NCBI GenBank assembly: GCA_937968015.1
Contig: CALBSO010000015.1
Coordinates: forward strand, 14,201-78,200
Reading direction: 5' to 3'
Source: an uncultured Thermomicrobia bacterium
Lineage (GTDB): Bacteria; Chloroflexota; Chloroflexia; Thermomicrobiales; JALYUS01
Length of the DNA stretch: 64,000 nucleotides
The position numbers were made by a program, and so were the translations under genes. The notes under the pieces are model-generated. The model was not told where the DNA came from. It was given only the letters and a program-made list of their open reading frames with translations, and searched no databases. Shown in pieces: positions 20,161 through 57,985 of this stretch (position 1 is the stretch's first letter; the number at the start of each line of letters is the position of its first letter).

Positions 20161-20199
20161 ACTCATTGCTCGTTACTCGCTACTCGCTACTCGTTACTT
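20161..20199. repeat. Tandem heptamer array (ACTCGYT x about 5), single right-arm copy of the heptamer-palindrome family
   Basis: actcatt gctcgtt actcgct actcgct actcgtt actt, ending 12 nt before ATG 20211. Near-identical to the right arms at 37150-37179 and 57957-57985. Confidence 0.85.
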
Positions 20200-32483: not shown

Positions 32484-35369
32484 GTCGCACCCGGCCTTGC
32501 GACCGGGTGAGGATTGAAACGCCATCGCCCGCGTGCTCGAAGGCGTCCACCCCAATGTCGCACCCGGCCTTGCGACCGGGTGAGGATTGAAACCGATTGA
32601 CCGGATCGAAAAGGAGATCGTCAACGAGTCGCACCCGGCCTTGCGACCGGGTGAGGATTGAAACATCGAGCGGCCTCTGCCGACCATTGTACGGGCAAGT
32701 CGCACCCGGCCTTGCGACCGGGTGAGGATTGAAACCGAACCAAACAGATCGCCCCGGCCTCCCCCAATCGTGTCGCACCCGGCCTTGCGACCGGGTGAGG
32801 ATTGAAACACACACGGGTTGTGCGCCTTGTAGGGCGCGAGCGGTCGCACCCGGCCTTGCGACCGGGTGAGGATTGAAACGTGTCAAGAGGGGGGTGTGAG
32901 TACATGGCGAGAATCGTCGCACCCGGCCTTGCGACCGGGTGAGGATTGAAACGACGAGCACGGGCAATCGGAACGCGTCATCATCGTCACGTCGCACCCG
33001 GCCTTGCGACCGGGTGAGGATTGAAACGTATTGTTGAGGAGCGCCGTGTAGCCGTCATAGGAGGCGTCGCACCCGGCCTTGCGACCGGGTGAGGATTGAA
33101 ACGTCGCCGTTCGCCCGCTTGCCGATTGCCAGTACAGGAGTCGCACCCGGCCTTGCGACCGGGTGAGGATTGAAACAGCATCCTCGGCGCGGATCGAGTG
33201 ATACGGCGTATGAGTCGCACCCGGCCTTGCGACCGGGTGAGGATTGAAACGTGTTCGGCGGGGTGGGAATGAGCCGGTATGTGCGCGTGTCGCACCCGGC
33301 CTTGCGACCGGGTGAGGATTGAAACACGGCACATCGATGTGCGGCGGCATGCCGGCGGGCTGCGCGATGCGGGTCGCACCCGGCCTTGCGACCGGGTGAG
33401 GATTGAAACACGGCACGGCGACGGCGCCGGCGGGGGGGACGGTCTTGTCGCACCCGGCCTTGCGACCGGGTGAGGATTGAAACTGCGACTGGCAGCGCGA
33501 GGTGATTGACGCCGCGCTCGTCGCACCCGGCCTTGCGACCGGGTGAGGATTGAAACACAAGGCCGTCAGGGAAGCGCGAGTGTATGCAGACCTGTCGCAC
33601 CCGGCCTTGCGACCGGGTGAGGATTGAAACTAGTACCACCAGTCCCTTCCCCGCCGCATTTGCACCCGTCGCACCCGGCCTTGCGACCGGGTGAGGATTG
33701 AAACAACTCATGCAGGAGGCAGGAGCGTTGGCAGAACAGGCGTCGCACCCGGCCTTGCGACCGGGTGAGGATTGAAACCATTGCCACCCGGCACCCACGA
33801 GCCGACATGCCAGTCGCACCCGGCCTTGCGACCGGGTGAGGATTGAAACAAGTCGGCGACATGATTGTCAATGCATCGGGCATGTCGCACCCGGCCTTGC
33901 GACCGGGTGAGGATTGAAACCGCAAGCGACGAATGATGGCTTGGTTTGAACGTTGTCGCACCCGGCCTTGCGACCGGGTGAGGATTGAAACCCACTCCAC
34001 GCGACCCCGCCTGAGATGCTCATTCGTCGCACCCGGCCTTGCGACCGGGTGAGGATTGAAACATACCGCGAAGTGGAAGAAACACTACCACGACCTCGTC
34101 GCACCCGGCCTTGCGACCGGGTGAGGATTGAAACTTCTGGTGAGGGGGATTGTTTTCATGTTAGGAGACGTCGCACCCGGCCTTGCGACCGGGTGAGGAT
34201 TGAAACGGCTACATGATCGAGCGAAAGCAGCCCCGCCGCAAGGTCGCACCCGGCCTTGCGACCGGGTGAGGATTGAAACACGCCGAGCGCGACGGTGACG
34301 GGGATCGGGCCGAGTCGCACCCGGCCTTGCGACCGGGTGAGGATTGAAACCCCCTGCGTGAAGCCCAAGCCAATCAGGTCGGCGTCGTCGCACCCGGCCT
34401 TGCGACCGGGTGAGGATTGAAACGCCGGTGCGCACGGGAGCGTCCTGTTCGGCAGTCAGTCGCACCCGGCCTTGCGACCGGGTGAGGATTGAAACATTAT
34501 CAGCGTGGCAATCGGCGGGACGCTCCTGGCGATTGTCGCACCCGGCCTTGCGACCGGGTGAGGATTGAAACAGCGCGAGGTCGTAAAGGAGTCGCCGCCG
34601 GGATGAAGTCGCACCCGGCCTTGCGACCGGGTGAGGATTGAAACTCGGCATGGCTCTATGTCCCGACCGGCACGCCGCTCGTCGCACCCGGCCTTGCGAC
34701 CGGGTGAGGATTGAAACATCGCACCGCGATCATTGCTCCCGTCGTGCGGGCGTCGCACCCGGCCTTGCGACCGGGTGAGGATTGAAACCAGCGGAAATAG
34801 TTGCCAGCGCCGGTCGTCAGGGGTCGCACCCGGCCTTGCGACCGGGTGAGGATTGAAACGGCGTGCCAATGAAGCCGCCGTCTGACCCGTTCGCGTCGCA
34901 CCCGGCCTTGCGACCGGGTGAGGATTGAAACTATAAGGCCTGCACTTCTGCCAGTACGTGATTGGTAACGTCGCACCCGGCCTTGCGACCGGGTGAGGAT
35001 TGAAACGCTGTCGGTGACGCGACCGGAGTCGGCGGGGCAGTTGGGTCGCACCCGGCCTTGCGACCGGGTGAGGATTGAAACGACGGCGCGGTGCTGCGCC
35101 CAACGACGGTGGATACGTCGCACCCGGCCTTGCGACCGGGTGAGGATTGAAACCCCTCGGATTGCAGGTACAGGAGTTTGCCAACATGTCGCACCCGGCC
35201 TTGCGACCGGGTGAGGATTGAAACACGAACCAGATGGCGCAGGTGCAGAACGCCATCGACAGTCGCACCCGGCCTTGCGACCGGGTGAGGATTGAAACTT
35301 GCAAGATCACCTCGACGTTCCGACAATCACGCGTCGCACCCGGTCGCAAGGCCGGGTGCTCGTCGAGAC
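32484..35369 (+). CRISPR. Type I-C CRISPR array: 39 identical 37-nt repeats, 1 aberrant terminal repeat, 39 spacers
   Basis: Repeat GTCGCACCCGGCCTTGCGACCGGGTGAGGATTGAAAC, with a 7-bp stem CACCCGG/CCGGGTG and the ATTGAAAC 3' handle. I indexed every unit: spacers are 34-39 nt except one of 47 nt (33326-33372). The terminal unit is 35333-35369. Confidence 0.98.
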
Positions 35370-35435
35370 CGATCATCAGTGACAGGCGTACGATCTCGTG
35401 CGAAACCTGCGATACTGCACGGCACGGAGCGGGGC

Positions 35436-36725
35436 ATGAAACGAAAGGACATGAGAAGCATGGCTGTGGCGACACTGGACCCGATGATCGAGGCCCTCGC
35501 GGAGCGCGTGAGCAGGGAGCGGCGTTACCTGCATATGCATCCGGAACTCGGGCTCCATGAGACGAATACCGCGAACTTCGTCGCGGAGAACCTGCGCGAG
35601 GCGGGCATCCCCTTCCGCACGGGCGTCGGTGGGGACGGACGGCCTTTCTATATGAATGCCGACGCCCTGAAAGTCGCCGGGATCAAGACGCTACCGACGA
35701 CGGGGGGCACGGGCATCGTCGCCACCATCGAAGGCGCACGGCCTGGGAAATGCGTCATCTTGCGCGGTGACATGGACGCGCTGGCGATGCAGGAGGAGAC
35801 AGGCGCGGATTACGCTTCGCTCACGCCGAATGTCATGCACGCCTGCGGGCACGATGTCCACACCGCCGTGATTCTCAATACCGCCCGCGTGCTCTGGGCG
35901 CGCAGGAGTGAGTTCGCGGGGACAGTAAAATTGATGTTCCAGCCTGGCGAGGAAGGATACGGCGGCGCGCGGGCGATGATCGAGGACGGCCTGCTGGAGA
36001 ACCCGACGGTCGACGCCGCCTTCGCCCTCCATGTGGACCCGCAGGTGCCGGTCGGACAGATCGCCTACACGCCGGGGATGGCCAACGCCAACTCCGACCG
36101 CGTCTTCATCCGCGTGCATGGCAAGGGCGGGCACGCCGCCCGGCCGCACAGTGCGGTGGACAGCACGCTCGTCGCGGCGCATATCCTCATCGCGCTCCAA
36201 TCCCTGATCAGCCGTGAGACGGACCCGACCGAATCCGCGGTCATTACCATCGGCACGTTGCAGGCCGGCGTCGGTGCGGCGAATGTCATCCCCGAGTTCG
36301 CGACGCTCTTCGGCACGGTGCGGACGCTGAACCTGGAAGTTCGCGAGCATATCCGCAGGCGCATCCCCGAAGTCGCCTCCCACATCGCGCAAGCGATGGG
36401 TGCGACGGCGGAGACGGCCTATCTCACCGGCTACCCGGCGATGGTCAACAACCCGGCGATGTGCGAGGTGATCCGCCGCGCCGCGCTGCCAATCATCGGC
36501 ATGGAGAATGTGAAGGAGAAGCCGCTCGGCCTCGGCGGTGAGGATTTCTCCTTCGTGCTCGAACAGGTACCCGGTGCGATGATGCGCCTCGGTACCGGAA
36601 ACGCGGAGCGCGGCCTGACCAACGGCGTCCACCACCCCAAATTCGATGTGGACGAGCGCGCCCTCCCCCTCGGTGTCGCCATGATGACTGCGATCGCGAT
36701 GGAATATCTCGGAAGTAACGAGTAA
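35436..36725 (+). CDS. M20D-family amidohydrolase (N-acyl-amino acid / hippurate hydrolase type)
   Basis: RRYLHMHPELGLHETNTANFVAENLREAGIPF, MHACGHDVH, GEEGYGGA. ATG 35436 (alternatives 35451, 35460). The track ORF start at 35292 lies inside the CRISPR array. Confidence 0.88.
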   Translation: MKRKDMRSMAVATLDPMIEALAERVSRERRYLHMHPELGLHETNTANFVAENLREAGIPFRTGVGGDGRPFYMNADALKVAGIKTLPTTGGTGIVATIEGARPGKCVILRGDMDALAMQEETGADYASLTPNVMHACGHDVHTAVILNTARVLWARRSEFAGTVKLMFQPGEEGYGGARAMIEDGLLENPTVDAAFALHVDPQVPVGQIAYTPGMANANSDRVFIRVHGKGGHAARPHSAVDSTLVAAHILIALQSLISRETDPTESAVITIGTLQAGVGAANVIPEFATLFGTVRTLNLEVREHIRRRIPEVASHIAQAMGATAETAYLTGYPAMVNNPAMCEVIRRAALPIIGMENVKEKPLGLGGEDFSFVLEQVPGAMMRLGTGNAERGLTNGVHHPKFDVDERALPLGVAMMTAIAMEYLGSNE

Positions 36726-37179
36726 CGAGTAGCGAGTAACGAGGGTGGAGGGGAGGCGCGGTGTGTCGCAGCGAGCGCAGAGATTTGAAGACGTGATCGC
36801 GTGGCAGAAGGCCAGAGCGCTGACTCGGGAAGTGTATGAGGCGACACAGCATCGTGCATTTGCAAAGGATTATGGACTCACGAGCCAGATGCAGCATGCG
36901 TCGGTCTCCATCATGGCGAATATCGCCGAAGGTTTCGAACGCGGAAAGCCGCGAGAGTATCTACATTTTCTCTCGATTGCGAAGGCGTCATGCGCGGAAG
37001 TCCGCTCACATCTCTACGTCGCCCTGGATACGGGGCATATTGATCAGCCGACCTTCACGCATCTCTCCGATTGCGCAACTGAAATCGGACGCATCATTGC
37101 AGGAGTGCGCATGGCAATCGAGCGCCAGCAGACGGGTTAATCCTTGTCACTTGTTACTCGTTACTCGTTACTCGTTACT
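36714..37179 (+). repeat. Heptamer-palindrome cassette: 30-nt inverted arms enclosing a four-helix-bundle gene
   Basis: Left arm AGTAACGAGTAACGAGTAGCGAGTAACGAG (36714-36743). Right arm CTTGTTACTCGTTACTCGTTACTCGTTACT (37150-37179). As RNA all 30 positions pair (28 Watson-Crick plus 2 G-U). The left arm contains the upstream gene's stop. Confidence 0.85.
36763..37140 (+). CDS. Four-helix-bundle protein (23S rRNA intervening-sequence protein family; Avd-like fold)
   Basis: FEDVIAWQKARALTREVYEATQ...DYGLTSQMQHASVSIMANIAEGFERGKPREYLHFLSIAKASCAEVRSHLYVALDTGHI matches the family pattern. GGAGG SD before GTG 36763. Confidence 0.85.
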   Translation: MSQRAQRFEDVIAWQKARALTREVYEATQHRAFAKDYGLTSQMQHASVSIMANIAEGFERGKPREYLHFLSIAKASCAEVRSHLYVALDTGHIDQPTFTHLSDCATEIGRIIAGVRMAIERQQTG

Positions 37180-37195
37180 TCCCGAAGGGGGCCGA

Positions 37196-38197
37196 ATGCT
37201 CGATTTTGGTATCACCCTCAAGCCAGATATGGCGCCAGAACGCGTGGTGTCGCTGACGCGCCAAGCGGAGGCAGCGGGCTTCGCCTACGGCTGGCTCTTC
37301 GACTCGCACGTCCTCTGGTTGGAGCCATATCCGCTCCTGACGCTGATGGCGCTCAACACGACGCGGATGCGGCTCGGCACCTGCGTGACGAATCCCGCGA
37401 CGCGCGACCCGACCGTGACCGCGAGTGCCCTGGCGACGCTCAACGTGATTTCCGGCGGGCGGATGGACCTCGGCATTGGCCGGGGCGACAGCGCGCGCCG
37501 CGTGATGGGCAAGAAGCCGACGACGCTCGCTACACTGGAGCAGGCGGTGCATATCGTCCGCGACCTCGCGGGCGGGCAGCCCACCGACTACGACGGCGAG
37601 CAGATCCGCATGGCGTGGGCGGCAGGGGACCTGCCTGTCTGGATCGCCGGGTACGGCCCGAAGGCGCTGCACATGGCCGGCCGCGTCGCGGACGGCATCA
37701 TTTTGCAGTTCGCGGATCCGCACCTCATCCGCTGGTGCCTGGGTTTCGCCCGTGAAGGCGCGGAGGCGGCCGGGCGCGATTTCACTACGATCAAGATCAT
37801 GGTCGCCGCGCCCGTCTGGGTTTCGGACGATCTCACGACGGCGCGCGAGCATGTGCGCTGGTTCCCCGCGCTCGTCTCCAACCACGTCATGGACCTGATC
37901 GCGCGCTACGACCCCGCCGCACTGCCTCCCGAATTGACCGCCTATGTCCAGAACCGCGCCGGGTACGACTACCGGCACCACGCCGAAGTCGGCAGCGGCA
38001 ACGCGCAATTCGTCGCGGACGAGGTCGTGGATCGCTTCTGCATCGTCGGCCCCGTCGCGGAGCACCACCGGCGGCTGCAAGAGTTGGCCAACCTCGGCGT
38101 CCATCAGTTCAATATCTACCTGATGAGCGGCGACGAAGAAGCGACGCTCGATGTCTATGGGCGGGAGGTCATCCCGTCTTTCACGGGGATTGCCTGA
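37196..38197 (+). CDS. Luciferase-like (LLM class) oxidoreductase, probably F420-dependent
   Basis: MLDFGITLKPDMAPERVVSLTRQAEAAGFAYGWLFDSHVLW...LGTCVTNPATRDP...MDLGIGRGDSA. Confidence 0.82.
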   Translation: MLDFGITLKPDMAPERVVSLTRQAEAAGFAYGWLFDSHVLWLEPYPLLTLMALNTTRMRLGTCVTNPATRDPTVTASALATLNVISGGRMDLGIGRGDSARRVMGKKPTTLATLEQAVHIVRDLAGGQPTDYDGEQIRMAWAAGDLPVWIAGYGPKALHMAGRVADGIILQFADPHLIRWCLGFAREGAEAAGRDFTTIKIMVAAPVWVSDDLTTAREHVRWFPALVSNHVMDLIARYDPAALPPELTAYVQNRAGYDYRHHAEVGSGNAQFVADEVVDRFCIVGPVAEHHRRLQELANLGVHQFNIYLMSGDEEATLDVYGREVIPSFTGIA

Positions 38198-38217
38198 AAC
38201 ACCAAGGAGGGAGCCCG

Positions 38218-39615
38218 ATGCGTACGGTGATCAAGGGCGGCACGGTCGTGACAGCGAGCGACACCTACACGGCGGATGTATTGATCGAGGACGAGCAGAT
38301 CGCCGCGATTGGCCGCGATTTGTCCGGCGACGTGGCGATTGACGCGGGCGGCGCGTATGTCATCCCCGGCGGGATTGATGTGCATACGCATTTGGAGATG
38401 CCCTTCGGCGGCACCGTCTCGTCGGACGATTTCTTCACCGGCCACCGAGCGGCGGCGTTCGGCGGCACGACGATGCACATAGATTTCGCCATCCAGCCGA
38501 AGGGCGCGACGCTGCGCGAGACCTTCGATCTCTGGTCCGTCAAGGCGCGCGGCAAGGCGGCGATTGACTACGGGTTTCACCTCGCCATCACGGATTTACC
38601 CGACAGCGTGATGGAGGAAATCCCGCAGTGTGCTGACTGGGGCATCACGAGCCTCAAGCTCTTCATGGCCTACAAGGGCGCGCTGATGGTGGACGATGGC
38701 ACGCTTTTCCGCGCGCTCGAACAAGGGGCGGCGCACGGGCTGCTCACTCTCGTCCACGCCGAGAATGGCGACGCGATTGACGTGCTCGTCACGCAGGCCA
38801 TCGCTGCCGGGAACCGCGCGCCGAAATATCACGCCCTCACCCGCCCCCCAGCACTCGAAGCGGAGGCGACAAATCGCGCCATCCGCCTCGCGGAAGTGGC
38901 GGGCGCGCCTTTATATGTCGTTCATGTCTCGTGCGAGGGCGCGCTGGAGGCGGTGCAAATGGCGCGGCGGCGCGGGCTGCCAGTCTACGGCGAGACGTGC
39001 GTACAGTACTTCTTCTTCACAAAGGACGACCTCGCCCGCCCCGGCTTCGAGGGCGCGAAGTACGTCTGCTCGCCGCCCTTTCGCGAGCAGCGCGACCAGC
39101 AGGCGCTCTGGCGCGGCGTCGCGGAAGACGGCTTGCAGGTCATTTCTACTGACCACTGCCCCTTCTGGTACGAGGGCGGCACTGGCGGGCGGAGTGGTGG
39201 CAAGGAACTGGGCAAGGAGGATTTCGCGAAGATCCCCAACGGCTGCCCCGGCATCGAGGACCGGCTGATGGTCCTCTACACCCACGGCGTGCGCGGTGGC
39301 CGGTTCTCGCTCAATCGCTGGGTCGCACTCTGCTGCACGAACCCCGCCAAACTGTTCGGCATGTACCCACAAAAGGGCGCGATCGCCCCCGGCAGCGACG
39401 CCGATCTCGTCATCTGGGACCCGAACGCGACGCGCACGCTCTCCGCCGCCAGCCAACATCAGCGCACCGATTACAACCTCTACGAGGGAATGGAGGTAGC
39501 GGGCGTGCCGCGCGTCGTCCTGTCGCGCGGGCGCGTGCTGGTCGAAGATGGTGCATGGCAGGGCGAGCAGGGTGCGGGCCGCTTCGTGCCGCGTACGCGG
39601 TTCGCGGGGGCCTGA
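38218..39615 (+). CDS. Dihydropyrimidinase / D-hydantoinase
   Basis: MRTVIKGGTVVTASDTYTADVLIEDEQIAAIG...IPGGIDVHTHLEMPFGGT...SLKLFMAYKGALMVDD...STDHCPF. Confidence 0.92.
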   Translation: MRTVIKGGTVVTASDTYTADVLIEDEQIAAIGRDLSGDVAIDAGGAYVIPGGIDVHTHLEMPFGGTVSSDDFFTGHRAAAFGGTTMHIDFAIQPKGATLRETFDLWSVKARGKAAIDYGFHLAITDLPDSVMEEIPQCADWGITSLKLFMAYKGALMVDDGTLFRALEQGAAHGLLTLVHAENGDAIDVLVTQAIAAGNRAPKYHALTRPPALEAEATNRAIRLAEVAGAPLYVVHVSCEGALEAVQMARRRGLPVYGETCVQYFFFTKDDLARPGFEGAKYVCSPPFREQRDQQALWRGVAEDGLQVISTDHCPFWYEGGTGGRSGGKELGKEDFAKIPNGCPGIEDRLMVLYTHGVRGGRFSLNRWVALCCTNPAKLFGMYPQKGAIAPGSDADLVIWDPNATRTLSAASQHQRTDYNLYEGMEVAGVPRVVLSRGRVLVEDGAWQGEQGAGRFVPRTRFAGA

Positions 39616-48735: not shown

Positions 48736-50922
48736 GTGTGCGACGATACCGACAGCACCAATGCGGAGGCGTCATTTTCCCCTATGGCAGCGGACAAACC
48801 GGAAGCGGCGTCGAAGGATGATCTATCGAACAAGCAAGCGGTAAACGGGGCGCGCGATCCGGTTGACGTGCTCGCCGACATCGAACGTGGCCCGCGCGAC
48901 GGCGCGCGCCCCCTCATCGGGCGGCGCACCGCAATGCCCGAGATTGACTGGCGGGAAGAGCGCCGGGGCGCCCTGCCCGGTAACCGGTACGTCCGCGTGC
49001 TTCGCTCGGCGGACCGGGGGTTCACGGCGCTCGGCCCGTCCACACTGCGCGCGGGCGAGAGCGCCCACGCCCCCCGCACGGGTGCCGGGCGCGTGATGAC
49101 CCGCGTCAAGCGCGCCCTGATCGGCCGCCCGATTGCCAGCGAGCATGCCATCCATGAGCGATTGACGAAGGTCAAGGCGCTCGCCGTCCTTTCCTCCGAC
49201 GCGCTCTCGTCGGTCGCCTATGCCACCGAACAAACGCTGGGTATCCTGGTGCTCGCCGGTGCGGCGGCGTTCGGCTACGTCCTGCCGATCTCCGTCGCGA
49301 TCGTTGTTCTGCTCGCGATTGTCGCGATCTCCTACCGCCAGACAATCTACGCGTACCCGAATGGTGGCGGCTCGTACATCGTTGCCAAGGATAATCTCGG
49401 CACGCTGGCCGGCCTCGTCGCGGCAGGGTCGCTGCTGATTGACTACGTCCTCACCGTCTCGGTCAGCGTCTCAGCGGGCGTGCTCGCGGTCGTCTCCGCG
49501 TTCCCCTCAACCGCCAAGTATACAGTCTCGATGGGTGTCCTTTTCATTCTCCTCATCATGCTCGGCAACCTGCGCGGCGTGCGGGAGAGCGGCACGATCT
49601 TCGCCATCCCGACCTACATCTTTGTCGTCGGCACGCTGGCGCTGATCGCCGTCGGGCTGCTGCGCGTCTTCACGGGCGACCCTGCGGCGACCTCGACCCC
49701 GCGCGACGCGATCCAATCAACGGAGGGGATCGGTATTTTCCTCATCCTGCGCGCCTTTACTTCCGGCTGTACCGCGCTGACCGGCGTGGAGGCGATCTCG
49801 AATGGCATCCCCGCCTTCAGGAAGCCGGAATCGAAGAACGCCGCGACGACGCTCATCGTCATGGTCACGCTGCTGGGCACGATGTTCATGGGCATCTCCT
49901 TCCTCGCGCACCGCTACGGCATCACCCCGCGCGACAACGACTCGGTCATCTCGCAGATCGCGGAGCATGTCTTCGGCGGTCGGAACGCGGCATACTTCGT
50001 TATCCAGCTCGCCACGACCTTGATCTTAGTGCTCGCAGCGAACACGAGCTACGCGGATTTTCCCCGCCTCGGCTCGATCCTCGCGCGGGACGGCTTTCTG
50101 CCGAAGCAGTTCCAATTTCGGGGCGACCGCCTCGCCTTCACGACGGGGATCGTCGTCCTCACCGTTCTGTCCAGCTTGTTGTATGTCGTCTTCGGCGGCC
50201 AGACGGACCGGCTGATCCCGCTCTATGCGGTCGGCGTCTTCGTCTCGTTCACGCTCTCGCAGGCGGGGATGGTGCGTCACTGGATGCGCGAGCCGGGCAA
50301 CCACACCCGCAATATGCTTATCAACGGGATCGGCGCGGTCGCAACGGGGATCGTGGCGATCCTGTTCGCCTACACGAAGTTTCTCTACGGGGCATGGCTG
50401 GTCATCATCATCATCCCGATCATCGTGCTCCTTTGCCTGGGCATCGCGCGCCACTATCGCCAGGCGACCGAGCGGGTGCGCCTGACGGACGACGACCCGC
50501 CGCTTGCGCCGCGGACGGTTGAACAAGTGATCGTCGTGCCGGTATCAGACATCAACAAGGTGACGCTCAACGCGCTCTCCTACGCCCGCTCCCTCTCCAC
50601 GCAGGTCGTCGCGGTCCATGTGACGGACGACGCGACGGCGGCGACGCCCCTGCAGGAGAAGTGGGAGCGCTGGGGCGAGGGTGTCAATCTCGTCATCCTC
50701 GAATCGCCGTATCGCTCACTCACCGGGCCACTCCTCTCGTACATTGATCTCGTCCAGCGCAAGCGACCAAAGGCGATGGTGACGGTGCTCGTGCCGGAAT
50801 ACGTGCCGCAGCACTGGTGGGAACAGATCCTCCACTCACAGACGGCACTACGCCTCAAGGCATCCCTCCTCTTCCGCCCGAACACCGTCGTCACCAGTGT
50901 GCCGTATCACAGCAAGGAGTAG
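48736..50922 (+). CDS. kimA: KimA-family K+/H+ symporter (APC superfamily), paralog 1
   Basis: Collinear with B. subtilis KimA as I recall it. Matching blocks: LTKVKALAVLSSDALSSVAYATEQ, SYRQTIYAYPNGGGSYIV, FTSGCTALTGVEAISNGIPAF, GGQTDRLIPLYAVGVF, and C-terminal LVPEYVPQHWWEQILHSQTALRLK...VPYHSKE. Start uncertain (GTG 48736 or ATG 48784). Confidence 0.85.
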   Translation: MCDDTDSTNAEASFSPMAADKPEAASKDDLSNKQAVNGARDPVDVLADIERGPRDGARPLIGRRTAMPEIDWREERRGALPGNRYVRVLRSADRGFTALGPSTLRAGESAHAPRTGAGRVMTRVKRALIGRPIASEHAIHERLTKVKALAVLSSDALSSVAYATEQTLGILVLAGAAAFGYVLPISVAIVVLLAIVAISYRQTIYAYPNGGGSYIVAKDNLGTLAGLVAAGSLLIDYVLTVSVSVSAGVLAVVSAFPSTAKYTVSMGVLFILLIMLGNLRGVRESGTIFAIPTYIFVVGTLALIAVGLLRVFTGDPAATSTPRDAIQSTEGIGIFLILRAFTSGCTALTGVEAISNGIPAFRKPESKNAATTLIVMVTLLGTMFMGISFLAHRYGITPRDNDSVISQIAEHVFGGRNAAYFVIQLATTLILVLAANTSYADFPRLGSILARDGFLPKQFQFRGDRLAFTTGIVVLTVLSSLLYVVFGGQTDRLIPLYAVGVFVSFTLSQAGMVRHWMREPGNHTRNMLINGIGAVATGIVAILFAYTKFLYGAWLVIIIIPIIVLLCLGIARHYRQATERVRLTDDDPPLAPRTVEQVIVVPVSDINKVTLNALSYARSLSTQVVAVHVTDDATAATPLQEKWERWGEGVNLVILESPYRSLTGPLLSYIDLVQRKRPKAMVTVLVPEYVPQHWWEQILHSQTALRLKASLLFRPNTVVTSVPYHSKE

Positions 50923-50992
50923 TTCGAGGTTCGGGGTTCGAGGGAGGTCAATCTACTCCGAACCTCGAACCCTGTACCCCGAAGCTCGAACT
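50921..50992. repeat. Imperfect palindrome built from GGTTCGA-type heptamers
   Basis: AGTTCGAGGTTCGGGG (50921-50936) pairs with CCCCGAAGCTCGAACT (50977-50992) with 1 mismatch. Inner TTCGAGG pairs with CCTCGAA. Overlaps the kimA-1 stop. Confidence 0.7.
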
Positions 50993-51021
50993 CCATCCAC
51001 TTTGCAAGCGGAGTATACTAT

Positions 51022-51078
51022 CCGTACGGTCACAGGGAGAGAAGCCACTTCGAAAGCGGCATCCCTGTGACGGTACGG
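51022..51078 (+). promoter_or_regulatory. 5' leader hairpin (17-bp stem, 1 mismatch) overlapping the kimA-2 SD
   Basis: CCGTACGGTCACAGGGA ... TCCCTGTGACGGTACGG. The stem's 3' end overlaps GGAGGA (51077-51082), 10 nt before ATG 51093. Confidence 0.6.
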
Positions 51079-51092
51079 AGGATTACATCCGC

Positions 51093-53210
51093 ATGCCTGC
51101 GAATCTGCCGGGCGAACCGTCGGACCCAATTGCGCCCGTCGCGCCGGAAATGGCGATTGGCGATCCCGCGCCCCCGCCCGAGTTTTATGCCGAACTGAAT
51201 GGCGAGACGACGCGGGCAGTCCGCCGCGCCACCGCGCCCCAGATAGACTTTCGGGAGGTGCGACATGGCACACTGCCCGGTAATAAATACGTCCGCATCC
51301 TGCGCGCGCAGGATCAAGTTCTCAAGCAGGTCTCGCCGGATTACCTCGTCGCGAGCGAGCAATTGACGAAGCCGCGCAGCGCCTTCGGCAAGGTGCGCCG
51401 CGCCCTCGTCGGTCGCCCGATTGCCAGCGAGCACGCGATCCACGAGCGGCTGACGAAGGTCAAGGCGCTCGCCATCTTCTCGTCGGACGCGCTCTCGTCC
51501 GTCGCGTATGCGACGGAGGCGATCCTCGGCGTGCTCATCCTCGCCGGTGGCGCGGCCTTCGGCTATACGATCCCTATTTCCATCGCCATCGCCGTGCTGC
51601 TCGCGATTGTCGGCATCTCCTACCGGCAAACGATCCACGCCTACCCGAACGGCGCGAGCGCGTACCTTGTTGCGAAGGCGAACCTCGGCACTCTGCCGAG
51701 CCTGACAGCGGGAGCGTCGCTCCTGATTGATTACACCCTGACCGTCGCCGTCAGCGTCTCGGCGGGTGTGGCGGCGATCACCTCCGCGCTGCCGTCGCTC
51801 AGTCCGTGGCGCGTCGAAATCTGTGTGGCGTTCGTCGGCCTCATTATCCTCGGCAACCTGCGTGGTATCCGGGAGAGCGGCTCGATCTTCGCGGTACCGA
51901 CCTACCTCTTCATTCTCAGCATCGCGGTGCTCGTCTTCCTCGGCGTCTTCCGCTCCCTGACGGGCGGCGATGTCGCGTTCAACACCCCGCGCGAGACGGT
52001 CAACGCGGTAGAGGGCGTCTCGCTTTTCCTGATCCTCAAAGCGTTCACGGCAGGCTGTACCGCCCTGACGGGCGTCGAGGCAATCTCGGACGGCGTGCCC
52101 GCCTTTAAGCCGCCGGAAGCGAAGAATGCCGCAACGACGCTCGTCTGGATGTGCTCGATCCTCGGGGCGATGTTCATTGGCCTCTCCTTCCTCGCACACC
52201 GCTACGGCATCGTCCCGAATGACAAAGAGACCGTTATCTCGCAGATCGCCCGGACGGTGATTGGGCACAATTTCTTCTACTATTTCATCCAGGCGATGAC
52301 CGCACTCATCCTCGTCCTCGCCGCCAACACGAGTTTCGCGGACTTCCCCCGCCTCTCGACATGGCTGGCGAAGGACCATTTCATGCCCAAGCAGTTCCTT
52401 TTCCGGGGCGACCGGCTCGCCTTCAACACCGGCATCACCGTGCTTGGCGTCCTCGCGACGATTCTGCTCGTCGCCTTCGGCGGGCAGACGGACCGGCTGC
52501 TGCCGCTCTACGCGGTCGGCGTCTTCACGGCGTTCACGCTCTCGCAATCCGGCATGGTGCTGCACTGGTACAAGGAGCGCGGCCGGGGCTGGACGCGCCG
52601 CTTCGCGCTCAACCTCGTCGGCGCGACGGCGACCTTCTTCGTCCTCGTCCTCGTCATCCTGACGAAATTCCAGGGTGGCGCGTGGATCGTCCTCGTCCTC
52701 ATGCCACTGTTGATCCTCCTCTTCCGGGGGATCAACCGGCACTACGTCCGCGCGGCGGCGGAACTGGCGCTCGGAGACGACGATGCACCCAGTTCGTACC
52801 AGAAAGCGGAGCAGGTCGTCATCATCCCGATCGCGGACATGAATAAGTCCACCGTCTACGCCCTGAACTACGCGCGCACCCTCTCGCCGAAGATCGTCGG
52901 CGTCCATGTGACGGACGATGCAGAGGAGGCGGCGCACTTGCAGGAGAAGTGGGCGCGCTGGGGCGAGGGCGTCAATCTCGTCATCTTAGAGTCGCCCTAT
53001 CGCTCGCTGATGGCGCCGCTCCTCTCGTACATTGATATGGTGCAGAAGAAACGCCCGAACGCGATGATCACTGTCCTCGTGCCGGAATACATCCCCGCCC
53101 ACTGGTGGGAACAGATTCTCCATTCGCAAACCGCCTTGCGCATGAAGGCCGCCCTTCTCCTCCGCCCCAACACCGTCGTCACCAGCGTGCCGTATCACAG
53201 CAAGAATTGA
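51093..53210 (+). CDS. kimA: KimA-family K+/H+ symporter, paralog 2
   Basis: Same conserved blocks as paralog 1 along its whole length, including the N-terminal LPGNKYVRILR extension and C-terminal LVPEYIPAHWWEQILHSQTALRMK...VPYHSKN. Confidence 0.87.
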   Translation: MPANLPGEPSDPIAPVAPEMAIGDPAPPPEFYAELNGETTRAVRRATAPQIDFREVRHGTLPGNKYVRILRAQDQVLKQVSPDYLVASEQLTKPRSAFGKVRRALVGRPIASEHAIHERLTKVKALAIFSSDALSSVAYATEAILGVLILAGGAAFGYTIPISIAIAVLLAIVGISYRQTIHAYPNGASAYLVAKANLGTLPSLTAGASLLIDYTLTVAVSVSAGVAAITSALPSLSPWRVEICVAFVGLIILGNLRGIRESGSIFAVPTYLFILSIAVLVFLGVFRSLTGGDVAFNTPRETVNAVEGVSLFLILKAFTAGCTALTGVEAISDGVPAFKPPEAKNAATTLVWMCSILGAMFIGLSFLAHRYGIVPNDKETVISQIARTVIGHNFFYYFIQAMTALILVLAANTSFADFPRLSTWLAKDHFMPKQFLFRGDRLAFNTGITVLGVLATILLVAFGGQTDRLLPLYAVGVFTAFTLSQSGMVLHWYKERGRGWTRRFALNLVGATATFFVLVLVILTKFQGGAWIVLVLMPLLILLFRGINRHYVRAAAELALGDDDAPSSYQKAEQVVIIPIADMNKSTVYALNYARTLSPKIVGVHVTDDAEEAAHLQEKWARWGEGVNLVILESPYRSLMAPLLSYIDMVQKKRPNAMITVLVPEYIPAHWWEQILHSQTALRMKAALLLRPNTVVTSVPYHSKN

Positions 53211-53233
53211 GAAGGAACGAGGAACGAGGGTAG

Positions 53234-53258
53234 GGGCGGTTCGAGCACCGCCCTTTTT
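53234..53258 (+). terminator. Rho-independent terminator
   Basis: GGGCGGT tcgagc ACCGCCC followed by TTTTT, 24 nt after the kimA-2 stop. Preceded by AGGAACG x2 heptamers (53213-53226). Confidence 0.75.
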
Positions 53259-56699: not shown

Positions 56700-56709
56700 G
56701 CAGTAACGA

Positions 56710-56766
56710 GTACTGAGTGCTGAGTATGGGATCGTCGCTCGTTGCTTTATACTCAGCACTCAGCAC
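56710..56766. repeat. Heptamer-built hairpin (ACTGAGT/GCTGAGT type), 18-bp stem with 1 mismatch
   Basis: GTACTGAGTGCTGAGTAT ... ATACTCAGCACTCAGCAC with a 21-nt loop. Lies between the LuxR stop (56699) and the TMEM175-like start (56790). Confidence 0.8.
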
Positions 56767-56789
56767 GCAGCACTTCAGAAAGGCCAGGA

Positions 56790-57609: not shown

Positions 57610-57930
57610 ATGAACGCACACGACACCATCCGCAACGAAGTCCTCAGTTGGCCCGGTGTAACGGAGGAACCGCACCGCTTCGGCGGCATGGAGTTCCGCC
57701 TCGGCAAGCGCGAACTCGGCCACCTGCACGGCGATTACCTCGCTGACCTGCCCTTCCCCGTCCGCGTGCGGGAGGAATTGGTGCGCGAGGGGAAGGCGAT
57801 GCCGCACCATATTCTGCCGCAGAGTGGCTGGGTCAGTTACCCGATCCGCGACGCAAGCGCGATCCCCGGCGCGCTCGATCTTTTCCGCCTCGCCTACGAG
57901 CGTGCGACGAAAGTAACGAGTAGCGAGTAG
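57610..57930 (+). CDS. Small luciferase-domain family protein (DUF5519-like)
   Basis: LSWPGVTEEPHRFGGMEFRLGKRELGHLHGDYLADLPFPVRVREELVREGKAMPHHILPQSGWVSY. Confidence 0.7.
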   Translation: MNAHDTIRNEVLSWPGVTEEPHRFGGMEFRLGKRELGHLHGDYLADLPFPVRVREELVREGKAMPHHILPQSGWVSYPIRDASAIPGALDLFRLAYERATKVTSSE

Positions 57931-57985
57931 CGAGTAACGAATGGGGTTGACATCTCTCGCTACTCATTACTCGTTACTCGTTACT
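57912..57985. repeat. Empty heptamer palindrome (AGTARCG x4 / CGYTACT x4), 29-nt arms, 16-nt loop
   Basis: Left arm 57912-57940 overlaps the upstream stop TAG 57928-57930. Loop is atggggttgacatctc. Right arm is 57957-57985. 25 Watson-Crick plus 2 G-U of 29 positions pair. Confidence 0.85.

Follow-up and report, generated by a model that had tools for sequence, protein, structure and literature searches.

A four-helix-bundle gene between inverted heptamer arrays

We analyzed a 64,000-nt stretch of a contig from an uncultured Thermomicrobia bacterium of the Chloroflexota (CALBSO010000015.1). We call this stretch the window, and all coordinates without a prefix refer to it and to its (+) strand. 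Between the genes for an M20 peptidase and a luciferase-like monooxygenase lies a small gene for a four-helix-bundle protein of the PF05635/S23p family, other members of which are encoded within intervening sequences (IVSs) of 23S rRNA. The small gene is enclosed by inverted arrays of a 7-nt unit, which we call the arms. From 5' to 3', this cassette and its borders are as follows (ORF, open reading frame; SD, Shine-Dalgarno; TRF, Tandem Repeats Finder):

35436..36725 (+): upstream host gene, an M20 peptidase/amidohydrolase (ORF list; homologues with PF01546/PF07687)
36711..36743 (+): 5' arm, 4.3 tandem AGTAACG units with one AGTAGCG variant, plus GGA, which extends the base of the stem (TRF)
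36744..36762 (+): spacer in the loop, with the SD-like sequence GGAGGGGAGG of the enclosed gene (read from the sequence)
36763..37140 (+): four-helix-bundle gene, 125 aa, GTG start, TAA stop at 37138-37140 (PF05635/TIGR02436)
37150..37182 (+): 3' arm, ACTCGTT/CGTTACT heptamers, the reverse complement of the 5' arm
37185..38197 (+): SD sequence GAAGGGGG and downstream host gene, a luciferase-like monooxygenase with its ATG at 37196 (PF00296, E = 2.1e-62)

If the left arm (36714-36743, AGTAACGAGTAACGAGTAGCGAGTAACGAG) is compared with the reverse complement of the right arm (37150-37179, CTTGTTACTCGTTACTCGTTACTCGTTACT), there are 28 matches and two G:T positions, or 28 Watson-Crick and 2 G-U pairs. 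A repeat search extends the arms to 33 nt (36711-36743 and 37150-37182, 94% complementary) with 406 nt between them. Outside the arms, the palindrome continues (GGA...TCC), and there is no direct duplication. According to TRF, the arms have a period of 7, with 4.3 and 4.4 copies; in the general phase that we use to compare loci, the local unit is GAGTAAC. The TAA stop codon of the M20 gene (36723-36725) is inside the second heptamer of the left arm, the start codon of the enclosed gene follows this arm by only 19 nt (an alternative GTG is at 36745), and 13 nt separate the right arm from the ATG of the luciferase-like gene. The occupied unit folds with its arms paired (z = -5.4 versus shuffles). 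Allowing for two mismatches, the 14-mer AGTAACGAGTAACG occurs 18 times in the window, versus 0.14 times expected from shuffles.

The gene belongs to its family by wide margins: PF05635 matches with E = 6.5e-34 (116.8 bits; cutoff 33.8) and TIGR02436 with E = 2.2e-31 (108.3 bits; cutoff 24). An earlier note on this DNA, made from the letters alone, had described the pairing of the arms, a 406-nt loop with an SD sequence and a 125-aa four-helix-bundle ORF, and the location between two co-directional metabolic genes, and it had proposed to check the ORF against these two profiles and to fold the unit. Direct comparison of the arms, the sequence of the loop, the identity of both neighbors, the profiles, and the folding bear out this description.

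A six-frame profile search (hmmsearch) found exactly one PF05635 gene in the window and no second or degraded copy there (for example, beside a solo array at 20162). Relatives with solved structures are PDB 2gsc (E = 4.6e-12) and 2rld (E = 0.0079), with five chains in each entry. The closest relative (P0001, 125 aa) is 99% identical. Of the family's conserved motif GxxRxxxSxxxNxxE (Zhang & Ye 2014, PMC3936711), the window protein has S-x3-N-x2-E (SIMANIAE) but a histidine at the arginine position, 45; over 90% of relatives, including the orthologues at loci L002 and L003, have arginine at this codon. The gene is under strong purifying selection, with a dN/dS of 0.04-0.09 against orthologues, and proteins from different phyla are 55-65% identical. 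At E <= 1e-3, the family comprises 16,319 clusters at 50% identity, and a tblastn search for carriage by phages found no match in 50,697 phage records.

In diversity-generating retroelements (DGRs), the accessory protein Avd works on structured RNA with a reverse transcriptase. Avd shares a homologous four-helix-bundle fold with the window protein, and the literature considers Avd and PF05635 proteins to be homologous. Given the weak match of the window protein to the bAvd profile (PF22296, E = 0.0044), the gene could be read as an Avd accessory protein and the repeats as part of a retroelement. However, this match has 17.9 bits, under the cutoff of 40. A peptidase, a monooxygenase, an amidohydrolase, and a transporter are encoded nearby, and the scanned neighbors include no reverse transcriptase. 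Template or variable repeats are absent as well, and the same synteny, also free of a reverse transcriptase, is found at three orthologous loci (L001-L003). We rejected this reading, which we find scarcely credible, on the grounds of the sub-threshold bAvd match and the lack of a reverse transcriptase among the scanned neighbors.

A more conventional idea is that the palindrome is a terminator or attenuator and that the gene has its own promoter. There is indeed a long GC-containing hairpin at a gene end, but TCCCGAAGGGGG follows the right arm with no run of Ts, unlike in an intrinsic terminator, and the SD sequence and ATG of the next gene come within 13 nt. Furthermore, a promoter scan found no promoter-like site in 35200-38300, and 19 nt from arm to start codon is too short for a promoter. 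No T-tract terminator flanks the unit; the sole nearby terminator-like match is a weak 6-bp hairpin, at chance level. With both scans at chance level, we rejected a separate promoter or terminator, and we consider this idea very unlikely.

Inverted heptamer arrays flank the family across phyla

Using an alignment of the subfamily, we scanned representative genomes once and obtained 80 loci (52-87% identity) from at least 12 phyla. These include Chloroflexota, Acidobacteriota, Cyanobacteria, Nitrospirota, Desulfobacterota, Planctomycetota, Verrucomicrobiota, Deinococcota, Proteobacteria, Gemmatimonadota, and Armatimonadota, among others. For each gene, we searched for the best ungapped inverted repeat between the 200 nt upstream and the 230 nt downstream, and we considered scores of at least 14 to indicate arms. 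As a control set, we used 261 neighboring ORFs of at least 150 aa from the same loci. Inverted arms were present at 70 of 77 testable family genes and at just 3 of the 261 neighboring ORFs; if a period of 7 is required as well, the counts are 66 of 77 and 1 of 261. The earlier note had named flanking arms at other four-helix-bundle genes of the genome as a test of its proposal; the 70 relatives across phyla support the proposal.

The unit varies between loci. GAGTGCT and GAGGACT are the commonest (15 loci each), and others include GAGTGAT, GAGTAAC, and AAGTGGA. Within one locus, both arms agree, and where one arm has a variant unit, the other mirrors it (for example, at L015). Rotated to a common phase, the units have the core R-A-G-K-R-M-T in common. 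Arms have a median length of 34-35 nt and range from 18 to 267 nt. Of 63 upstream arms, 50 have a stop triplet on the sense strand, versus 31% expected for random heptamers; of 61 downstream arms, 53 have one on the antisense strand and only 8 on the sense strand. Three Verrucomicrobiota loci (L064, L077, and L083) show the reversed polarity, with CAGTCCN upstream and NGGACTG downstream, and their upstream arms have no stop triplets on the sense strand.

There is also an orientation bias: according to crude longest-ORF calls, the upstream neighbor is co-directional with the family gene at 68 of 76 loci and the downstream neighbor at 50 of 66. The stop codon of the upstream gene is inside the array in 38 of the 68 co-directional cases and within about 20 nt of it in most others. 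Judging from these loci, the element in the window is one copy of a widespread composite: a PF05635 gene with its own SD sequence, nested between inverted heptamer arrays.

The arms could also be there by coincidence. Heptamer palindromes might be ordinary intercistronic hairpins (with roles in stability, processing, or translational insulation), with the gene merely lying between two of them. As described below, empty palindromes of several units are found at other gene ends in the window, and palindromes fill the end of the M20 gene in relatives that lack the four-helix-bundle gene too; also, an unrelated DUF4159 gene at L021 is bracketed by arrays. However, coincidence does not account for the enrichment (66 of 77 versus 1 of 261 neighboring ORFs) or for the recurrence of the arrangement inside 23S rRNA, where a native heptamer hairpin is absent. 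Also, loop sizes fall into two classes: across 508 kb, the loops of 11 inverted heptamer pairs measure 0-60 nt, and those of another 53, which contain the gene, measure 351-520 nt. We consider coincidence highly improbable.

The DUF4159 gene at L021 (4495-5911; 434 aa) has a GAGTGCT array on its upstream side and AGCACTC arrays on its downstream side, with 1.3 kb between them. It was the only candidate for another cargo and may be a rare one, but we treated it as a host gene that lies between two palindromes.

Across phyla, proteins whose arms are of the same unit type are more alike. For two loci from different phyla, protein identity is 66.1% if the unit is shared and 62.2% otherwise, and none of 2,000 permutations reached this difference. 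Furthermore, the occupied palindrome and nearby empty palindromes of one genome are usually of one unit.

Copies inside 23S rRNA and in cas operons

Classical IVSs of 23S rRNA are found at helix 9, 25, or 45. The family member of Azospirillum lipoferum 4B is inside a 23S rRNA gene (Rfam large subunit [LSU] model, 2520 bits), and its arms, TCAGAGGACGGATGACAGAGGACGGAGGACAGAAAG and CTATCCGTCCTCTGTCTTCTGTCATCCGTCTTCTGA, consist of GAGGACN heptamers. From our reading of the flanking rRNA, this copy would be at the helix-45 position. A single metagenome scan with the Azospirillum ORF gave 13 relatives, of which 12 are inside LSU rRNA, with inverted tandem-heptamer arms in all. Their units include CAGAGGA/CAGATGA, GTCAGGA, GTTAGGA, TCAGATG, and ATCAGAA, and the copies occupy two rRNA sites. 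The second site is that of L107, L108, and L112, with flanks ..CAGTCGGAG.. and GACGGCGTACCTTTTGTA.. and with heptamer arms; it is probably the helix-25 region.

A heptamer array has been reported in one such IVS, that of Coxiella burnetii, which has three tandem GACAGAT heptamers at its 5' end; the 5' RNase III cut was mapped to the first repeat, and both ends of the IVS are within the stem (PMC4990558). GACAGAT is a rotation of the CAGATGA unit of one of our metagenomic copies (L102). Because native rRNA has no heptamer hairpin, the arms of the rRNA-borne copies must have come with the element. ORF-bearing 23S IVSs have the same architecture as the element in the window, so the rRNA IVS appears to be the special case of an element that is hosted by a ribosomal transcript. 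As far as sequence can tell, a heptamer stem characterizes the ORF-bearing element in rRNA and mRNA hosts alike.

More distant members (29-45% identity) on plasmids of cultured strains have short tandem-repeat flanks as well. For each of these members, we give the location, the repeat, and whether the two arrays are inverted or direct:

Nostoc ATCC 53789 (L089): flanked by hypothetical genes; GGGAAAA; inverted
Riemerella (L090): behind an Fe-S assembly gene; GGTTCAA; inverted
Gemmatirosa (L094): unannotated record; GGAGGGC; inverted
Picosynechococcus (L096, plasmid of PCC 7003), 1495-1851: between cas10/cmr2 and cmr3; GGAGATAA; inverted
Pseudanabaena galeata pPg_01 (L095), 1393-1512 and 1873-1990: between cas6 and cas4; AAAAGCT x14 upstream and AAAAGCC x10 downstream; direct

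At L095, the gene looks as if it had been inserted within a single tandem array. Genes annotated as 23S_rRNA_IVP have been described in co-directional positions between cas genes and were taken to be functionally linked to CRISPR-Cas (PMC3936711; FLSHclust, PMC10910872). Both of the cas-operon copies that we examined (L095 and L096) are flanked by tandem short repeats like other members of the family, so their position would fit hitch-hiking in operon spacers.

The window also contains a CRISPR array (32484-35298, about 38 copies of the 37-nt repeat GTCGCACCCGGCCTTGCGACCGGGTGAGGATTGAAAC), which ends about 140 nt before the M20 gene. Other PF05635 genes sit in cas operons, and the closeness of this array to the cassette may or may not be due to chance.

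Empty palindromes and turnover at the orthologous site

The closest orthologues of the four-helix-bundle gene (99%, 87%, and 77% identity) are on long metagenome-assembled contigs of Chloroflexia (L001-L003). All three share the gene order M20 peptidase, four-helix-bundle protein, luciferase-like protein, amidohydrolase. All three also keep complementary AGTAACG/AGTAGCG arms, with differences in copy number and in the positions of variants, so the conservation of the arms holds for orthologues at 87% and 77% protein identity. At L002, the ORF has an arm on either side, and a 17-nt loop and arm' follow; in other words, there is a complete empty palindrome downstream of the gene and an extra arm upstream.

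To survey the orthologous site, we searched with the M20 peptidase and examined contigs of relatives whose M20 proteins are 78-91% identical. Behind the M20 gene, these contigs have:

L085 (M20 86%): M20 - luciferase - amidohydrolase synteny without the four-helix-bundle gene; empty palindrome GAGTAGCGAGTAACGAGTGA / 18-nt loop / CTCGTTACTCGCTACTCGCTACTC
L097 (M20 87%): degenerate empty palindrome of the L085 type
L099, L100, and L101 (M20 91%): empty GGTTCGR-type palindrome
L098 (M20 83%): GCGCAAAG-type palindrome
L088 (M20 78%): GAGCAAC-type palindrome, with a different gene next
L084 (M20 91%): no heptamers; a different GC-rich inverted element

At L085, the empty palindrome (AGTAGCG/AGTAACG) is between the stop codon of the M20 gene and the SD sequence of the luciferase gene. 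The earlier note had suggested a comparison of related strains for presence or absence at this locus, and L085, with its empty palindrome only, is such a case. L099 and L100 encode identical M20 proteins, and the central 24 nt between their arms (about 2775-2798) are exact reverse complements of each other (GTTCGAGGAGTCCCTTCCCCGAAC versus GTTCGGGGAAGGGACTCCTCGAAC), a natural inversion polymorphism of the DNA between the arms. Overall, these states of the M20 spacer and the L099/L100 inversion indicate that the ORF is variably present relative to the palindrome, and they suggest that the palindromes turn over quickly and that the arms recombine at the DNA level.

The earlier note had also proposed a search for AGTAACG/CGTTACT palindromes, and within the window we found one occupied copy and empty copies of several unit types. 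All of the further heptamer elements of the window are at gene ends:

57912..57985 (+): empty sister palindrome, AGTAACG/AGTAGCG; arms 57912-57940 and 57957-57985, 29 nt, 86% complementary, 16-nt loop
56702..56774 (+): empty mixed-unit palindrome, AGTAACG and then AGTACTG/AGTGCTG, which pair with CAGCACT (TRF)
50922..50991 (+): empty palindrome of another unit, GTTCGAG/GTTCGGG pairing with CCGAACC/TCGAACC
20162..20198 (+): solo CTC-type array, CTCGTTA/CTCGCTA heptamers just upstream of an SD sequence and ATG
53213..53229 (+): short AGGAACG array, 2.4 copies, after the second permease gene and followed by another, GC-rich hairpin element

The palindrome at 57912-57985 is between a gene with a luciferase domain, whose stop codon is inside the arm, and a gene for an ABC transporter. 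Its folding energy is -42.9 kcal/mol (z = -5.0), and with its 16-nt loop and the same AGTAACG/AGTAGCG unit as the occupied copy, it does look like the unoccupied form, as had been proposed. The mixed-unit palindrome at 56702-56774 is between a LuxR-family gene and a TMEM175-like gene. The palindrome at 50922-50991 starts directly behind the TAG of an amino-acid permease gene, and its GTTCGAG unit type also fills the orthologous M20-luciferase spacer in L099-L101. For the solo array at 20162-20198, we found no partner arm in the window.

The permease gene at 48736-50922 has a tandem paralog at 50817-53210. The 3' ends of the two genes are nearly identical, yet they are trailed by different repeats: the first by the GTTCGAG-type palindrome and the second by the AGGAACG array and a GC-rich hairpin. 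This hairpin repeat, GTAGGGGCGGTTCGAGCACCGCCC (53230-53253), is distinct from the heptamer arrays. At L084 (3775-3875), an inverted pair of GTAGGGGCGGTTCGAGCACCGCCC replaces the heptamer palindrome in the orthologous M20-luciferase spacer. It looks like a second REP-like (repetitive extragenic palindromic) element family of this lineage.

A proposed IVS-type cassette carried by an operon mRNA

Our preferred explanation, to which we assign a probability of roughly 60%, is that the element is an IVS-type cassette that is expressed by read-through, is probably cut by RNase III, and is gained or lost by recombination between heptamer arrays. The promoterless cassette would sit on the stop codon of a co-directional gene and be transcribed as part of the M20-peptidase/luciferase-like/amidohydrolase operon mRNA. 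We infer read-through because there is no promoter-like site or T-tract terminator at the window copy and only 19 nt between the arm and the start codon. In the transcript, the arms would pair to form a near-perfect duplex of about 30 bp. RNase III requires roughly two helical turns of duplex, and the stem of 30-33 bp is longer than that. RNase III would cut the duplex, as has been demonstrated for the Coxiella IVS, which would free the message of the four-helix-bundle gene and separate the flanking cistrons.

The first arm would also stop incoming ribosomes in all three frames and from either direction, which would insulate the cassette from the host genes. This is expected of at least three copies of the unit because its length of 7 is not a multiple of three and because it contains a stop triplet; since the structure is palindromic, ribosomes arriving from the other side should be stopped as well. 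At the DNA level, the arrays would be portable homology, so that the ORF could be gained, lost, or flipped by array recombination. This step fits the arrangement at L002, the loci with direct arrays, and the L099/L100 inversion.

Several points weigh against this explanation. Read-through and RNase III cleavage are extrapolated to this element from rRNA IVSs. The Coxiella authors hold that the protein is probably not expressed after cleavage (PMC4990558), and cleavage could silence the ORF instead of expressing it. The difference between L085 and the window could be either an insertion or a precise loss. Some members have direct rather than inverted arrays (L095 and, weakly, L091), so the stem is not obligatory. 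The orientation of the neighbors rests on crude longest-ORF calls, and the permutation test of unit identity ignores phylogenetic non-independence. Finally, the mismatches between arms show no excess of sense-strand G-U over A-C, which selection for a stem of sense RNA should favor: across 71 loci with 255 mismatches, 64 are G:T or T:G and 64 are A:C or C:A. Because these counts are equal, there is no sign of selection on a duplex of the sense RNA, and the 2 G-U pairs in the earlier note do not generalize and are not evidence of such selection. Slippage, template switching, or recombination may instead keep the arms complementary as DNA; alternatively, the arrays may turn over too fast for this test.

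A rival explanation gives the protein a role in the spread of the repeats. In analogy to RAYTs (REP-associated tyrosine transposases) and the REPINs they accompany, the four-helix-bundle protein would bind the heptamers as RNA or single-stranded DNA and would maintain, regulate, or spread the palindromes; the empty palindromes would be the non-autonomous form and the occupied one the master copy. The protein might have a reverse transcriptase as a partner, like the related Avd of DGRs. Such a partnership would suit the tight association of gene and repeat across phyla, the conserved core R-A-G-K-R-M-T (the units are not arbitrary), the tendency of unit type to follow the protein clade, the unit shared by occupied and nearby empty palindromes, and the conservation of the protein (dN/dS of 0.04-0.09, and 55-65% identity between phyla). 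It would also suit the five chains per entry in solved relatives; the Xcc0516 structure is described as an assembly of five four-helix bundles in an entry of one paper's reference list. A study of Nostoc postulates a protein that binds heptamer repeats (bioRxiv 10.1101/2022.06.06.494920), and Ralph & McClelland, as cited in PMC4990558, proposed that the IVS ORF encodes a component for mobility. On the other hand, no nuclease, recombinase, or polymerase domain is recognizable in this 125-aa helical bundle, the scanned neighbors of the gene encode no reverse transcriptase, and the window has palindromes of several units but only one four-helix-bundle gene. We see this rival as possible but rather unlikely.

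In its broadest form, PF05635 proteins would be trans-acting partners of heptamer repeats, with an oligomer that recognizes the R-A-G-K-R-M-T units and controls or propagates the palindromes, and they would belong to one ancient class of horizontally mobile elements in mRNA spacers, cas operons, and rRNA. Many heptamer repeats of cyanobacteria, Chloroflexota, Acidobacteriota, and other groups would be its empty derivatives, and Avd would be a domesticated branch. This broader idea is, if anything, slightly more doubtful.

Comparison with known systems

The IVS-type cassette resembles, but does not coincide with, several known systems. Cyanobacterial short tandemly repeated heptamers (STRR) are tandem 7-nt intergenic units, and the window arms also have at least three tandem 7-nt units in an intergenic location (TRF). 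In REPIN/RAYT and REP systems (including BIMEs, bacterial interspersed mosaic elements), as in the window, there are short palindromes at gene ends, and one gene is flanked by inverted copies of a repeat that is otherwise dispersed in empty form. In contrast to the HUH/Y1 transposase of REPIN/RAYT systems, the enclosed gene is a 125-aa helical bundle that matches PF05635 and bAvd only, and the arms are heptamers of variable copy number rather than a fixed REP sequence. Nor does the element look like a miniature inverted-repeat transposable element or an insertion sequence: its arms are tandem repeats of variable copy number, there is no duplication of the target-site type, and there is no transposase gene.

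The closest match is to the ORF-bearing 23S rRNA IVSs of Leptospira, Coxiella burnetii, Xanthomonas, and Brucella (Ralph & McClelland 1993; Warrier et al. 2016, PMC4990558). Like these, the element has terminal inverted repeats that form a long stem, the loop of which holds a PF05635 gene in the sense orientation of the host transcript. Tandem-heptamer arms are shared with the IVSs of Azospirillum, with the metagenomic copies, and with the 5' end of the Coxiella IVS. The sporadic distribution of these IVSs and their suspected horizontal transfer (PMC4990558) are a further likeness. The location differs: the window element is not inside a 23S rRNA gene but between two protein-coding genes, in an operon mRNA between a stop codon and the next SD sequence, where RNase III excision is proposed by analogy. 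Also, the window gene is strongly purified by selection, whereas the Coxiella ORF is reported to be decaying (PMC4990558).

Intergenic TAACTGA heptamers have been described in Beggiatoaceae, cyanobacteria, and Bacteroidetes (MacGregor 2015, PMC4679880). These repeats and those of the Nostoc study (bioRxiv 10.1101/2022.06.06.494920) are also 7-nt intergenic units near start or stop codons, and they often overlap the end of the upstream ORF. Those reports are mainly of direct arrays and make no link to PF05635, whereas the window arrays are inverted around a specific gene, in a Chloroflexia genome. The terms "S23," "four helix," and "intervening sequence" do not occur in PMC4679880.

What was already known, then, is the presence of heptamers in a single Coxiella IVS (PMC4990558), heptamer repeats without a link to a gene, and the presence of the family in cas operons and rRNA without mention of repeats. 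In the full-text literature, we found no description of a general association between the gene and heptamers; most papers in subscription journals are outside this scope, and a prior description is possible. Within the same scope, the earlier note's impression that the arrangement was undescribed is consistent with what we found. Its proposal that an IVS-like cassette also exists outside rRNA, in occupied and empty forms, agrees with the arms at orthologues, the survey (70 of 77), the heptamer arms in rRNA, and L085. The new parts would be the IVS element outside of rRNA and the heptamer stem as its universal hallmark.

Implications

Genome annotation could flag both occupied and empty units as one class of repeats. 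The empty ones may combine a hairpin with translation stops in three frames and both directions. Because carriers of the family include cultured bacteria (Nostoc PCC 7120, Trichormus variabilis, Nostoc punctiforme, Riemerella, and Azospirillum), these questions are experimentally accessible.

If our explanation is true, then the reported association of the family with CRISPR-Cas would need to be re-read as hitch-hiking. It would also join three puzzles: the function of PF05635/S23p proteins, the origin of ORF-bearing rRNA IVSs (open since 1993), and the tandem heptamers of intergenic regions in cyanobacteria and other phyla. And if the element rides on any highly transcribed RNA, then the fragmentation of rRNA by IVSs would be a side effect of a general hitch-hiker.

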